DNA of 64,000 nucleotides from an uncultured Clostridium sp. (GTDB lineage Bacteria; Bacillota; Clostridia; TANB77; CAG-508): the NCBI GenBank assembly GCA_958422985.1, contig CATZPY010000001.1, forward strand, positions 64,780 through 128,779. Direction: 5' to 3'. Position 1 is the first letter of the stretch; each line of letters opens with the position of its first letter. The position numbers were made by a program, and so were the translations under genes. Shown piece after piece: positions 24,361 through 36,067 of the stretch. The notes below the pieces were generated by a model. The model did not search any database. It worked only from the letters and a program-made list of their open reading frames with translations, and had not been told where the DNA came from.

Positions 24361-25377
24361 ATGGCTTCAAATCCAATGCAAAGACAAAAAAGAGTATCAT
24401 TTTTATTAGGAATGTTAGTAATGCTAATTATAGCAGCAATAATAATAGCATTACTATTTATGCAATTAATTAATTTAAAGAAAGCACAAGATGCAGCAAA
24501 AGCAGCTGAAAGGACAGTATATGTTGTTTCAACAGATGTTGCCTCTGGTTCAGGAATTCAAATTTCAGCAATAGATGGTGACACAGAAAGAACAGCAAAT
24601 GTTTCACAAGAAGTTGCAGATAGCAAAGTAGTACCAGAAAATTTTGCAACAGCTTCAGATTTTTATACAGATGAATCATTAAGCCAAGCCAGAAGCGATT
24701 TAGTAGCAAAAATAGACTTAAAAGAAGGTACAATTTTAACAAAAGATATGTTAACAACAAGCTCAGAACAAGTTACAAATGACTTAAGAAAACAAGAATA
24801 CAACATGTTATCATTACCAACAGATTTAGTTAGTGGAGACTTTGTAGATGTTCGTATACGTTTTGGAAATGGACAAGATTACATAATTGCAGCTAAAAAG
24901 CAAGTAACAATTCCAATGATAGCTGGAGCACCAGCAGAAGGTGTAATAAATATAAATTTATCTGAAGATGAAACAATTGCAATGTCTAGTGCAATAATAG
25001 AAACATATCAATTAAAAACTGCAGAAATGTATGTAAGTAGATATACAGATCCGGGAATGCAAGTGGCAGCAATACCAACATATCCAGTAAATGCGGAAGC
25101 ACTTAACTTAATGGATTCAAATCCAAACTTATTAGAAGAAGCTAAACAAGCTATAGCAAGTAGATATAACAGAAACTTAAGAGAACAATTTATTAATCCA
25201 CAAATTAATAGTGTTGATGGAGAAGATAGACAATCTAACCTAGAAACTTCTGTAGAAGAACATATTACACAACAAAAAGAATTAAGACAACAATATTTAC
25301 AATCACTTGAAGACGCTGCAGCAGCAGAAGCAGATGCATCTGCTTCTGGAACAAACACAACAACTTCAGCTAATTAA
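24361..25377 (+). CDS. CpaB/RcpC-like pilus assembly protein (N-terminal TM, SAF-like domain, beta-clip-like domain)
   Basis: 338 aa. TM segment FLLGMLVMLIIAAIIIALLF, then KIDLKEGTILTKDMLT and SLPTDLVSGDFVDVRIRF patterns typical of CpaB. First gene of the cluster. Confidence 0.5.
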   Translation: MASNPMQRQKRVSFLLGMLVMLIIAAIIIALLFMQLINLKKAQDAAKAAERTVYVVSTDVASGSGIQISAIDGDTERTANVSQEVADSKVVPENFATASDFYTDESLSQARSDLVAKIDLKEGTILTKDMLTTSSEQVTNDLRKQEYNMLSLPTDLVSGDFVDVRIRFGNGQDYIIAAKKQVTIPMIAGAPAEGVININLSEDETIAMSSAIIETYQLKTAEMYVSRYTDPGMQVAAIPTYPVNAEALNLMDSNPNLLEEAKQAIASRYNRNLREQFINPQINSVDGEDRQSNLETSVEEHITQQKELRQQYLQSLEDAAAAEADASASGTNTTTSAN

Positions 25378-25395
25378 TTATATGTAGGAGGAAAT

Positions 25396-26079
25396 ATGAA
25401 ACAAGTAGGATTTGTAGGAGCTTTTGATAAAACAGATTTAATAATATATATTGCGAAAATCCTAACTGTGTTAGGCAAAAGAGTATTAATTGCAGATACA
25501 ACAATTACGCAGAAAGCAAAATATGTTGTGCCTGCATTAAATCCTACTTTGTCTTATATAACAGAGTTTGAAGAAATAGATATAGCAGTTGGATTTAAAA
25601 ACGTAGAAGCAATAGCGAAGTATACTAATAGAAGTGTAGACACACTAGAGTATGATTATTTATTATTAGATATAGATAATGCTGAAAGCGCAATGAATTT
25701 TAGAATAGATATGTCAGTACAAAACTTTTTTGTAACTTCTTTTGATACGTACGATATAAGAAGGGGAATAGAAATATTAGGACAATTTCAGACTCCAATA
25801 AAAATGACAAAAGTACTATTTTCTAAAGAAGTTTCTAAAGAAGATGATGAATATTTAAACTATTTATCATTAGGTGCAAAAGTTATGTGGGAAGATGATA
25901 GAATATATTTTCCTTTAGAAATGGGAGATAAAACAGCAATTATTAATAACCAAAAAGTAGCAAAAGTTAGATTTGAAAATTTAACAAGTATGTATAAAGA
26001 TGGAATGGAATTTGTAATTGCAAAAATAGATCATACACTTCAAGGACCAAATATAAGAAAAATTATAAAAGAAATTTAA
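25396..26079 (+). CDS. Degenerate ParA/MinD-like (TadZ/CpaE-like) protein 1
   Basis: VGFVGAFDKTDLIIYIAKILTVLGKRVLIADTT occupies the place of the deviant Walker A region. Confidence 0.45.
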   Translation: MKQVGFVGAFDKTDLIIYIAKILTVLGKRVLIADTTITQKAKYVVPALNPTLSYITEFEEIDIAVGFKNVEAIAKYTNRSVDTLEYDYLLLDIDNAESAMNFRIDMSVQNFFVTSFDTYDIRRGIEILGQFQTPIKMTKVLFSKEVSKEDDEYLNYLSLGAKVMWEDDRIYFPLEMGDKTAIINNQKVAKVRFENLTSMYKDGMEFVIAKIDHTLQGPNIRKIIKEI

Positions 26080-26096
26080 TCTTAAAGGAGAGAAAA

Positions 26097-33713: not shown

Positions 33714-33743
33714 TATTAAAAGGGAAATAGGAGGTAATGTAAA

Positions 33744-34277
33744 ATGGGAGATACAGTAGTTACAATTTTAGCAATAGTATTAGCAGCTGTATTAATGTTT
33801 GTTTTCCCATTAATGTCAGTTGCTGACCGTAGTGATGATGTTTCACAATTATCTGTTCAAAATAGTACAACTACATTTGTAGACAATATTCGTTCTACAG
33901 GAAGAATAACATTAGCAGAATACAATAGGTTTGCACAAGAAATTAATGCAACAGGAAATACATATGAAATAGAAATGGAAGTAAAAATTTTAGATGAAAA
34001 TCCTGGTAAGAAAACAGCGCAAACAACTTATGAAAAAATAGGAGAAAATGTGTATTATACAGAATATACTACACAAATTATAGAAGACCTAAAGGACGCA
34101 AGAAATAACAATACTAAATATTTAAAAGAGGGAGATATTGTATCTGTTAGTGTAAAAAATACAAACACAACAATTTCTCAATTATTAAGAAACTTCTTCT
34201 ATAGAGTAACAGGAAATGATTCTTCAACGATAGGAGCATCAAACGGAGGAATTGTTACTGTAAATGGAAGAAATTAG
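33744..34277 (+). CDS. N-terminally hydrophobic minor-pilin-like protein P6
   Basis: MGDTVVTILAIVLAAVLMFVFPLMSVADR, 177 aa. Confidence 0.4.
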   Translation: MGDTVVTILAIVLAAVLMFVFPLMSVADRSDDVSQLSVQNSTTTFVDNIRSTGRITLAEYNRFAQEINATGNTYEIEMEVKILDENPGKKTAQTTYEKIGENVYYTEYTTQIIEDLKDARNNNTKYLKEGDIVSVSVKNTNTTISQLLRNFFYRVTGNDSSTIGASNGGIVTVNGRN

Positions 34278-34438
34278 ATAACAAAGAAATAAGGGGTGTC
34301 TTGTAAAAAACACCTTTTTCTTTTATTATATAAGAAATGTATGAATATTTTTTTATTAGCAAAGTGGCAATATGTTTGTAAAAAAAGCTATATTTTTTAT
34401 ATAATAAAAGAGTTACAAAAGTAAAGAGAGGAATAAAT

Positions 34439-36067
34439 ATGAAACTACAAAGCTGGATAGTAATATTTTCTATTATTGTTATACCAATAGTATTAGTAAT
34501 GTCTTTATATATACAAATGCAAATAAGCTATGTAAACTTACAAAGCAATTATGATACTATATTAAATAATGCAACATATGATGCAATAAAGGCATTCCAA
34601 ATAAATGAAACAAATAGTACAACACAAAATATAGCACAAGAAAAAATAAGAGATGTTGAAGCATCTGTAACAACATTTTATAATTCATTGGCTACAAATT
34701 TTGGACAAAGTGGATATTCAGAAGATGAACTACAAAGTTATATACCAGCATTAGTATATACTTTATATGATGGATATTACATATATACTAGATATAATAA
34801 TGTAGTAACAGAAAATAATACAATTAATTTAAATTCTACCAAATCAGAAACAGGGCTTAAACCATATGTATATTATTCTGGAAGATATAAAACAGACGCA
34901 GGGGAAGATATTGTAATAAATTATACATTAGATAATTATATAACAATATTTTATAAAAGAGGTTCAGAGTATAAAACATATTCTGGTTTTTTAATAGATA
35001 CATCTAAAACAGATTCTATTGGAACTTGGTACAATAGCGGTGGAACAAGAATAAGCATAGGAAGTGAAGATTTAGCAGAAATAAATCGTACAGCTAGTGA
35101 GAACAATTCTACACAAAAATATAATTATACATATTTTACTAATTCAAATGGAAGAAGAGAAAAAGCCTATTGGGATGGTAGCAAATGGTATAAATATAAT
35201 GTTGATGGAACTGTAAATTATGTTGATGAAAATATGATTGCACAATTAGGCAATTCGTATAAAAGAGATACAAGCGCACAGAAATATTTACAAGATGCAT
35301 ATAAATTTACAAATGAAGTTAAAAGTATATTAAGAAACATTAAATTAGGAGATATTGTAGACGTTAATAAAGAAGAACTAGGAATTACAGGGAATGTGGC
35401 AAATAAAAACCTAATAGATTTTGGAGCAACAGATGGAACAATGTTAAATACTTTTAATGAACATAAACAGCAAGTTATGAAAAATTCTATTACAACAAAC
35501 TTAAAAGCAACAATTGCAAAGTTTAATGAGAATTCTACACATCCAGCTAAAATGCCAACTTTAACAGAAAACGAATGGAATATGATTTTAAGCAATACAT
35601 GTTTAATATCATTTATGCAAGGTCAAAATATAGGAAATGGATATTACATGGGATATAGTATTGTAACAAATAATAAAAATAGAGAATTTGTTGATCCAAA
35701 ACTAATATATATTTTAGATAAAGATAAAAATCAATTTCACGATGTTAGACATTTAAATGCGAGTCTTTCAGGGAATATTATGGGATATAGAAATATAGAT
35801 TTCGACTCACAAAGTTATGTTGCAAGTGATGGTTCTGTTAAAAATTATTTCCTTCATGGCAAAGCGACAGCAGATTATGCTTGTATAGTAACTTCTGCAG
35901 ATATAACAACATCTAAAGGAAATAGTGAAGCTGATAATTCTTCGGGAAATTATACAACACCTTTAGATGAAATATTAAGTTCAGCTCCATATAATATAAA
36001 ACAAACATATTATACAGCACTATTTAGAGAAAGATGTAATTCTTATAAGAGTTTAATGCTAAGCTAA
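34439..36067 (+). CDS. Large N-terminally anchored protein P7, weakly TadG-like
   Basis: 542 aa. WIVIFSIIVIPIVLVMSLYIQMQISYVNLQSNYDTILNNATYDAIKA resembles the TadE/G-like N-terminal pattern (hydrophobic helix, LQ..D..A.DA). Confidence 0.4.
   Translation: MKLQSWIVIFSIIVIPIVLVMSLYIQMQISYVNLQSNYDTILNNATYDAIKAFQINETNSTTQNIAQEKIRDVEASVTTFYNSLATNFGQSGYSEDELQSYIPALVYTLYDGYYIYTRYNNVVTENNTINLNSTKSETGLKPYVYYSGRYKTDAGEDIVINYTLDNYITIFYKRGSEYKTYSGFLIDTSKTDSIGTWYNSGGTRISIGSEDLAEINRTASENNSTQKYNYTYFTNSNGRREKAYWDGSKWYKYNVDGTVNYVDENMIAQLGNSYKRDTSAQKYLQDAYKFTNEVKSILRNIKLGDIVDVNKEELGITGNVANKNLIDFGATDGTMLNTFNEHKQQVMKNSITTNLKATIAKFNENSTHPAKMPTLTENEWNMILSNTCLISFMQGQNIGNGYYMGYSIVTNNKNREFVDPKLIYILDKDKNQFHDVRHLNASLSGNIMGYRNIDFDSQSYVASDGSVKNYFLHGKATADYACIVTSADITTSKGNSEADNSSGNYTTPLDEILSSAPYNIKQTYYTALFRERCNSYKSLMLS

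Follow-up and report, generated by a model that had tools for sequence, protein, structure and literature searches.

Type IV filaments are defined by pilins that carry a leader and by a dedicated peptidase. Can a machine of this kind be built when the candidate subunits have no leader and the locus holds no such peptidase? This question is raised by a cluster of twelve genes, here called g1 to g12 (Table 1), in the genome of an uncultured Clostridium sp. (assembly GCA_958422985.1). The whole stretch of DNA that was analysed, referred to below as the window, comprises 64,000 nucleotides of contig CATZPY010000001.1 (positions 64,780 to 128,779), has a G+C content of about 27% and is chromosomal DNA of a Clostridia bacterium that forms spores. 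In the view that we favour, with slightly more than even confidence, the twelve genes specify a nanomachine of a monoderm cell that is type IV filament-like and derived from Tad. What we observe is the gene set, the relation of g1, g3, g4 and g5 to Tad components, the leaderless starts of the candidate subunits, the pattern of conservation and the genomic contexts.

A preliminary description, made from the letters of this DNA, had proposed a tight, co-directional cluster of twelve genes encoding a Tad/CpaF-type filament-like machine with non-canonical subunits. All twelve open reading frames were recovered where it had placed them, on the + strand between positions 24361 and 36067, with intergenic gaps of 17–161 bp and a GGAGG-type ribosome-binding site 6–9 nt 5' of the start of every gene. 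The proposed kind of machine is also supported, by the homology of g4, g5, g1 and g3. The gene order, CpaB, TadZ, TadA, TadBC and then the small subunits, is that of the canonical loci L091 and L094 (Rhizobium and Streptomyces plasmids).

A Tad-type motor, platform and accessory proteins

The ATPase g4 consists of a transmembrane anchor (residues 2–20), a family-specific N-terminal domain of about 240 residues and a catalytic core (about 265–540) with a Walker A motif, GEQGCGKTT, at residue 377 and a His box, THHA, at residue 474. When a profile built from 41 diverse members of the family was compared with the PDB, CpaF was by far the best match (95.7 bits, E 2e-26), followed by FlaI (53.8 bits) and archaeal GspE (47 bits) and, at lower ranks, by VirB11 and PilT (about 37 bits), GspE (36 bits) and PilB (32 bits). 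The single sequence gave CpaF with E 1.7e-9 and VirB11 with E 0.099. In the light of the phylogeny of type IV filament ATPases, we take this ranking to indicate an ATPase of the Tad/archaeal type rather than a VirB11. General models recognise the protein poorly. In Pfam, it reaches 26.6 bits for T2SSE, barely over the cutoff of 24.9; its best NCBIfam match, "TadA family conjugal transfer-associated ATPase" (E 4.6e-8), lies far below the model cutoff, and the ComGA model gives 20.3 bits at a cutoff of 300. Pfam, the profile scores and both motifs nevertheless place g4 in the PilB/GspE/CpaF/FlaI family of secretion ATPases, and the TadA/CpaF-type motor that had been proposed from the motifs is confirmed. 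The claim that this ATPase is membrane-anchored also holds, since 40 of the 41 diverse relatives possess an N-terminal transmembrane helix.

Two other identities, which the preliminary description itself had singled out as the ones to be excluded, were rejected. The NCBIfam models for VirB11 and TrbB give 12.8–14.3 bits at cutoffs of 250–461, and the family profile scores 37 bits for VirB11 vs 95.7 for CpaF. No SpoIIIAA model in NCBIfam or Pfam matches g4 at E ≤ 1, and the neighbouring genes are unlike spoIIIAB-AH.

The platform protein g5 had been described as a double GspF-like protein. This stands at the level of profile–profile comparison, where its two halves match TadB and TadC; general searches do not see it, as no match was found in Pfam (no T2SSF, also for eight diverse orthologs), NCBIfam or two PDB profile searches. 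The N-terminal half (residues 1–326) aligns over its full length with a TadB set (hhalign 93.9%, E 1.6e-7), and the C-terminal half (residues 302–688) with a TadC set (93.8%) and with TadC-position proteins (96.5%, E 8.5e-10), the best of which are the platform proteins of the pCLK-type plasmid modules discussed below. The matches are colinear, and the transmembrane segments and the cytoplasmic domain are in register with the TadB/TadC alignments. The real pairs score 47–81, whereas reversed-sequence controls score 17–24 (E 0.05–0.4, at most 1%). Comparison of g5 with a set limited to T2SSF proteins annotated by the Prokaryotic Genome Annotation Pipeline (PGAP) gave 73%. An internal repeat was not detected between the two halves, and in all distant loci the orthologs are single chains of 631–727 amino acids. 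Membership of g5 in the GspF/PilC/TadB-TadC type of platform is seen at the level of remote homology only, and its reading as a TadB-TadC fusion is moderately well supported by these alignments.

The accessory proteins g1 and g3 supply counterparts of two further Tad components, CpaB/RcpC and TadZ/CpaE. That the first protein of the cluster is CpaB-like, as had been suggested, was corroborated by the match of residues 10–243 of g1 to the CpaB-position proteins of five Tad loci (hhalign 96.3%, E 1.9e-9; reversed control 0.3%). On plasmids, its orthologs carry the annotation "SAF domain-containing protein". The match to TIGR03177 CpaB is weak (E 1.3e-3), and the top PDB match, FlgA SAF (E 0.22), is not significant. 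We propose that g1 serves as an envelope-spanning ring or alignment component.

The next two proteins had both been called ParA/TadZ-like, which is well supported for one of them. Over its full length, g3 matches TadZ-position proteins (hhalign 96.1%, E 3.6e-9; reversed control 0.2%); its PDB profile matches are ParA 3ea0 (E 1.5e-3), then Get3, CooC and MinD, and the Thermobacillus ortholog is annotated ParA. The consensus of its P-loop is KETGQT, in which the lysine is replaced and GQT is conserved; for this reason, g3 is probably a non-catalytic scaffold. For g2 the likeness is marginal: a profile match to MinD in the PDB (E 0.014), hhalign values of 3.9% against the TadZ set and 21.7% against g3, and no match in Pfam or NCBIfam. 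The position of g2 is conserved in 78 of 86 loci, and its sequence may be regarded as marginally ParA/MinD-like.

Candidate subunits without a leader

The seven remaining proteins, g6 to g12, are the candidate subunits. They had been described as sharing nothing except an N-terminal hydrophobic helix, and here the preliminary description has to be corrected. Five of them, g6 to g10, are full-length paralogs (hhalign 97–100%), referred to as the MENASKAL family, and g11 and g12 form two separate families. Among the paralogs, g6 matches g7 and g9 at 99.9–100%, the divergent g8 matches g6, g7 and g9 at 98.5–99.1% over its full length, and g10 matches the same three at 97%. Four of the five start with M(E/D)NA(S/V)(K/E)AL, and this N-terminus, including that of g6, is retained in about 80 related species. 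Orthologs of g10 start with MENA(A/V)(D/E)ALKMA and those of g8 with MKK; the true start of g8 is probably the ATG at 32213, two codons past the TTG at 32207.

The N-termini of these proteins leave no room for a leader. The protein g6 begins MENASKALTIAGG directly after the ribosome-binding site, with a stop four codons upstream, and each M(E/D)NA... start has an in-frame stop 0–7 codons upstream of it. The upstream stops and the placement of the ribosome-binding sites fix the N-termini of the subunits, so that a longer leader cannot be encoded. In the wider family, the N-termini follow one pattern, namely M, 1–7 residues, K/R, A/K/I, L/I and the hydrophobic helix, and neither a Gly nor a leader occurs in any of them. 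The Flp motif, G↓xxxxEY, is absent from all seven N-termini of the cluster. The earlier statement that the candidate pilins fit no known leader class is upheld.

Among 46 homologs of g9, the candidate major subunit, 19 of the 24 N-terminal residues vary little or not at all, compared with a mean column identity of 52% overall, and the C-terminal remainder is hypervariable, with insertions and deletions. Such conservation and architecture in the g9 family are a pilin signature: a near-invariant N-terminal helix, a hypervariable exposed domain and multiple paralogs. Modelling of the small proteins was applied to g9. The AlphaFold2 (AF2) model, with a predicted local distance difference test (pLDDT) score of 82.5, predicts a first helix at residues 2–53 (2–34 and 37–53) and then a small alpha/beta domain. 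A long helix and a globular domain are therefore predicted, as expected of a pilin, whereas likeness to a solved pilin did not emerge: no Foldseek match to the model was found in the PDB at E < 1, no pilin was matched in the PDB by the g9 profile, and no Pfam family matched. The predicted architecture, a long hydrophobic first helix followed by a globular domain, is the single feature that these subunits would share with type IV pilins. There is no leader, the helix is not preceded by Gly, and Pfam gives no match to the N_methyl, Flp or Class III families. In hhalign comparisons with TadE and TadG seed sets, values did not exceed 6.6%; the sets are small, and very remote homology is possible.

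Two other explanations bear directly on these observations. In one, the small proteins would be ordinary bitopic components of a static envelope complex in which nothing polymerises. The lack of pilin homology or of a fold match would agree with this, as would N-termini that resemble plain signal anchors, with Lys/Arg before the helix. However, near-invariant N-termini combined with a hypervariable ectodomain and five tandem paralogs are hard to explain as anchors, and no CpaF-TadBC pair is known to work without polymerising subunits; such a complex appears improbable. In the other, the machine would build nothing longer than a pseudopilus or piston of the type II secretion kind, which would push proteins or other cargo through the thick wall without forming a long fibre. 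The logic of motor, platform and small subunits is the same as that of type II secretion, no adhesin domain is detectable in g12, and the large SLH and DUF5704 surface proteins that accompany plasmid versions of the module could be the cargo. On the other hand, the hypervariable C-termini of g9 and its paralogs point to exposure to selection from outside, and no candidate cargo gene is conserved beside the window cluster. We consider a piston unlikely.

The last two proteins may act as minor subunits of the filament-like machine. The protein g11, found in all distant plasmid versions and in those on integrative and conjugative elements (ICEs), is a candidate for the initiation or tip subunit. 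A g11-type N-terminal module also opens two proteins of 857 and 575 amino acids at locus L081 (15682–19979), where it is followed by Big_3-like repeats and many CxxC motifs; these proteins look like modular tip adhesins on a minor-subunit scaffold. The protein g12, a candidate tip or adhesin subunit, is conserved in 66 of 86 loci, and its orthologs of 313–348 amino acids end the module in plasmid/ICE versions. Neither g11, g12 nor their orthologs have a match in Pfam, and hhalign revealed no link to TadE, TadG, DUF4320 or the pCLK pilins.

Peptidase and secretin genes

No Peptidase_A24 or secretin domain was found among the 57 open reading frames of the window scanned with Pfam, in agreement with the claim that the cluster has neither gene, and in 12 related loci the surroundings to a distance of about 10 kb contain no A24 peptidase either. 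A dedicated prepilin peptidase of the PilD, TadV, ComC or FlaK type was thus found neither among the scanned reading frames nor around these 12 loci. With neither recognisable pilins nor such a peptidase, the system is to be called type IV filament-like in its working rather than a canonical member of the superfamily. In a distant branch (L097, 14332–15036; 738-aa ATPase P0510), a gene for a protein with Rhomboid and Zn-ribbon domains directly follows the platform gene, and its product could be an alternative intramembrane protease that acts on the subunits there.

Distribution and conservation in gut Clostridia

The system is not peculiar to the source genome; it belongs to a large family with distant members in Gram-positive conjugative plasmids and ICEs. 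The g4 family comprises at least 373 clusters at 50% identity (E ≤ 1e-30), nearly all of 600–650 amino acids, and at least 591 species genomes encode a g4 relative. Related loci were compared in the best 80 of these at least 591 genomes, and the wider taxonomy comes from plasmid and metagenome look-ups. The 80 closest genomes are all metagenome-assembled genomes of uncultured gut Clostridia from human, chicken, rabbit and ruminant sources, including Clostridium sp. CAG:780 and Candidatus Merdicola. A megablast search with the cluster for near-identical DNA in plasmids and phages returned no match. A phage origin was rejected, as relatives occur on just 5 of 2.9 million viral contigs.

In each of the 45 loci with a full set of marker genes, the cluster is colinear between the gene for a HAD hydrolase and spoIVB. 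Its location directly upstream of spoIVB in a spore-former raises the idea of a machine specific to sporulation. Conservation of this adjacency in 64 of the 80 related loci and the presence of yqfD and other sporulation genes in the window would fit. Homologous plasmid/ICE modules, including that of Butyrivibrio, have no sporulation genes around them, however, and no SpoIIIAA-type model matches g4 at the threshold given above, so that a sporulation machine seems highly improbable.

Conservation was also gauged by comparing the window proteins with their counterparts in 79 related species. Median identity is highest for the ATPase g4 (81.9%), ahead of Era (68.4%), the Mur ligase MurC (66.3%), the platform g5 (65.3%) and RecO (59.2%). 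The most conserved small protein, g11, has 58.9%, and the other subunits have 28–39%. The motor thus evolves more slowly than Era and the Mur ligase encoded in the same window. Conserved synteny, together with the high identity of g4, indicates a vertically inherited core system in the gut clade.

Relatives on plasmids and integrative and conjugative elements

Relatives at 32–57% ATPase identity have the same gene order and are located on conjugative plasmids and ICEs of Bacillota. Some of these distant modules lie directly downstream, in the same orientation, of genes for a type IV coupling protein (T4CP), TrbL and TraC-like and VirB4-like proteins; others come after VirB4-like, T4CP and NlpC/P60 genes, and further ones after integrase, FtsK/TcpA, TcpC and TcpE genes. 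Among 130 plasmid matches, 25 are typed as conjugative. The g4 of the window is nearest to plasmid copies, with 57% identity to one in Paenibacillaceae; Thermobacillus composti pTHECO01 (57% identity) has a T4CP and a relaxase-like gene. Thermobacillus also shares the NASKAL motif, which together with this proximity points to an old transfer from plasmid to chromosome, or the reverse. The module is also found on Lysinibacillus sphaericus pBsph, on Clostridium botulinum type E plasmids and on plasmids of Paenibacillus, Cohnella, Sporosarcina, Cytobacillus, Alkalihalophilus, Butyrivibrio, C. argentinense and C. beijerinckii. Plasmids like pBsph have been reported to be conjugative in experiments (PMC13239906). 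For the remaining genes of the module, the annotation is "hypothetical".

Several plasmid or metagenomic loci contain further genes beside the module. An SLH-domain protein and a giant DUF5704 protein (1000–1200 aa) are encoded next to it in L084, L087 and L088, and GGDEF and HD-domain genes in L087 and L089; the module of L089 (C. botulinum p12/29 plasmid) also has genes for signal peptidase I and a cell-wall hydrolase. On an Alicyclobacillus plasmid (L093, 11101–12169), a short ATPase and a split platform occur together with leaderless small subunits such as MNGVMAGVVAGVMLL; leader loss may therefore have happened more than once.

These contexts suggest another function for the whole family, in which the machine would be a conjugation accessory, a mating pilus or wall-crossing device that works with type IV secretion systems (T4SS) of Gram-positive bacteria, and in which the chromosomal copy would still serve DNA exchange. 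In addition to the conjugation genes (T4CP, VirB4-like, TrbL, TcpC, TcpE, NlpC/P60) that directly precede distant members and the plasmids typed as conjugative, the name of the best NCBIfam match of g4, below cutoff as it is, and the closeness of g4 to the Paenibacillaceae plasmid copy speak for such a role. In the window itself, however, no relaxase, T4CP or VirB4 gene lies near the cluster, which stands between housekeeping genes and keeps this place in every related species where synteny could be assessed (45 of 45). The constraint on g4 is stronger than that on Era and MurC, which agrees better with a core function of the cell than with an accessory role. We think it rather unlikely that the module is in essence a conjugation accessory. 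On plasmids and ICEs, the modules probably do aid contact between donor and recipient in conjugation, and the gut-clade machine is most likely a surface filament for attachment to the host, to particles or to partner cells.

The literature searched, whose coverage is incomplete so that a prior account elsewhere is possible, held no description of the system. It is mentioned neither in the type IV filament reviews nor in the conjugation reviews that were surveyed, and no pilus for Gram-positive conjugation was reported in the searched literature.

Comparison with known systems

The nearest known system is Tad/Flp. The closest solved relative of the ATPase is CpaF, g5 resembles TadB plus TadC, g3 resembles TadZ, g1 resembles CpaB, and the order of the genes is alike. 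The differences are also considerable. The ATPase g4 is about 200 residues longer and has its own transmembrane anchor, TadB and TadC are fused in a single chain, and the leaderless subunits lack the Flp motif and are accompanied neither by a TadV peptidase nor by proteins recognisable as TadE, TadF or TadG. The sequences have diverged so far that g4 is the one protein seen by Pfam, and that barely.

An intermediate form may be represented by the Tad-like module of pCLK from C. botulinum Loch Maree (L090; Table 1), with similar modules on Alicyclobacillus and Thermoanaerobacterium plasmids. Like the cluster described here, it is a module with a CpaB-like protein, a CpaF-like ATPase, a platform and small subunits, carried in this case by Bacillota plasmids. 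In contrast, its ATPase has 468 amino acids and only 24% identity to g4, in an alignment that does not cover the whole protein, its platform consists of two separate proteins of 298 and 359 amino acids without a Pfam T2SSF match, and its five small proteins have a classical leader ending in KKGG↓LS. With a short ATPase, a split platform and a leader, this less derived module makes an evolutionary path to the present form plausible.

The Com (ComG) system resembles the cluster as a minimal type IV filament of monoderm bacteria whose operon encodes an ATPase, a platform and several small subunits in this order. It differs in that its pilins carry a class III leader cleaved by ComC and in that CpaB- and TadZ-like genes are lacking. 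For the plasmid/ICE members, an analogy may be drawn with the thin pilus of R64 (type IVb), in which a type IV filament module also lies on a conjugative element beside a T4SS. R64 is an IncI plasmid of diderm bacteria with canonical prepilins, the PilU peptidase and a secretin, and its pilus serves mating in liquid. There is no sequence relation between the two beyond the level of the superfamily.

Proposed mechanism and its difficulties

From these components a mechanism can be proposed. A g4 hexamer would be held permanently at the membrane by the N-terminal helix of g4 itself and positioned by g3, possibly with g2, as a degenerate TadZ-like scaffold. It would drive the single-chain TadB-TadC platform g5, which in turn would pull the bitopic MENASKAL-family subunits g6 to g10 out of the membrane. 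The subunits might then stack through their invariant N-terminal hydrophobic helices to form a fibre, which g11 and g12 would prime or cap and which a CpaB-like ring of g1 would guide through the wall. Since the subunits are made without a leader, a prepilin peptidase would not be needed. It is the polymerisation of the subunits, the surface filament and its function that we infer here.

Several points weigh against this interpretation. The candidate subunits have no pilin homology by Pfam, NCBIfam, PDB profile, Foldseek or hhalign (TadE, TadG, DUF4320 and pCLK pilins), and formally they look like ordinary signal-anchor membrane proteins. The homology of the platform is built on small seed alignments, and the C-terminal half of g5 does not match the set restricted to PGAP-annotated T2SSF proteins, which are the two reasons for grading the fusion as moderate. 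The AF2 model of g5, computed from a shallow alignment, is poor (pLDDT 58), and Foldseek results obtained with it were noise and were used neither way. The protein g2 is barely recognisable. A peptidase gene could sit elsewhere in the genome, as the scan covered the window and 12 related loci. Finally, the organism is uncultured, and the machine is predicted from its genes.

Surroundings of the cluster

On the 5' side, the cluster is preceded by yqfD, ybeY, a diacylglycerol kinase gene, era, recO, hpf and the HAD hydrolase gene; on the 3' side it is followed by spoIVB and then by a convergent Mur ligase gene. A terminator-like hairpin and a promoter-like site are located between g11 and g12 (Table 1), so that g12 may be transcribed separately from g1–g11. 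The evidence for this is weak: in this AT-rich DNA, the region contains 98 promoter-like sites vs 102.3 in shuffled sequences and 6 terminator-like sites vs 2.9.

The window also contains a type VII secretion-like locus (4141–12695). Between this locus and yqfD, a large serine recombinase with Resolvase, Recombinase and Zn-ribbon domains is encoded (13337–14956); it could mark the boundary of a mobile element or belong to an excision system of the sporulation type.

Table 1. Positions of the cluster genes and other features (window coordinates, except for the pCLK module, which is given in coordinates of L090).
Feature	Description	Position	Strand	Basis
g1	338 aa; CpaB/RcpC-like bitopic protein, N-terminal transmembrane helix and SAF-type domain	24361..25377	+	hhalign
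g2	227 aa; highly diverged, ParA/MinD-like; GxxDKTD where Walker A is expected	25396..26079	+	marginal
g3	277 aa; TadZ/CpaE-like ParA-type protein	26097..26930	+	hhalign
g4	650 aa; CpaF/TadA-clade secretion ATPase	26952..28904	+	profile scores, motifs
g5	690 aa; polytopic membrane platform, TadB-like N-half (about 1–326) fused to TadC-like C-half (about 302–688)	28930..31002	+	hhalign
g6	214 aa; MENASKAL-family paralog, enlarged C-terminal domain	31020..31664	+	hhalign, N-terminus
g7	147 aa; MENASKAL-family paralog, start MDNASKAL	31692..32135	+	hhalign, N-terminus
g8	145 aa; divergent MENASKAL-family paralog, N-terminus MKNT.../MKK...	32207..32644	+	hhalign
g9	134 aa; MENASKAL-family subunit, candidate major subunit	32700..33104	+	conservation, AF2
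g10	195 aa; paralog, N-terminus MENAVEAL, acidic residue 6 in place of Lys	33126..33713	+	hhalign
g11	177 aa; separate family, N-terminus M-G/S-D-T, hydrophobic helix ending in Pro, R-x-x-G-Y-I motif	33744..34277	+	
Terminator-like hairpin	GGTGT...ACACC and T-run, 3' of g11	34295–34330	listed as +; placed on - by the scan	read from sequence
Promoter-like site	TTGTAA-18-TATAAT, 5' of g12	34376–34405	+	sequence and scan
g12	542 aa; third family, N-terminal hydrophobic helix (MKLQSW...), large extracytoplasmic domain	34439..36067	+	
811-aa protein	type VII secretion-like locus, no Pfam match	4141–6576		
249-aa protein	type VII secretion-like locus, WXG100 domain	7135–7884		
1530-aa protein	type VII secretion-like locus, EssC-like, FHA and FtsK/SpoIIIE domains	8103–12695		
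era	window reference for conservation	20358–21260		
Mur ligase gene (MurC)	window reference for conservation	37510–38895		
pCLK Tad-like module	RcpC/SAF protein, ATPase, split platform, five small proteins	11179–17642 (L090)		

Implications

The main interest of this system lies in its leaderless, peptidase-free subunits and in its link to Gram-positive conjugative elements. A bolder reading, which we put forward tentatively and do not expect to prevail in full, is that it represents a third route to a type IV filament, with mature leaderless subunits, no peptidase, a self-anchored CpaF-like motor and a fused TadBC platform; that the family provides the pilus that Gram-positive conjugative plasmids and ICEs have seemed to lack; and that a widespread uncultured clade of gut Clostridia has domesticated one lineage of it as a surface organelle that it cannot do without. 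If this is true, leaderless subunits with a retained motor and platform would change the definition of the superfamily, and the peptidase step would be dispensable. Surveys based on hidden Markov models require recognisable platform and pilin genes and would probably miss the family, so that the census of filaments in Bacillota is incomplete. Its presence in Gram-positive conjugative elements, including plasmids for botulinum neurotoxin and mosquitocidal toxin, bears on the way in which mating contact is made. Since g4 is more conserved than Era and MurC in the gut clade, the organelle is probably central to the life of these intestinal bacteria, which are common though uncultured.

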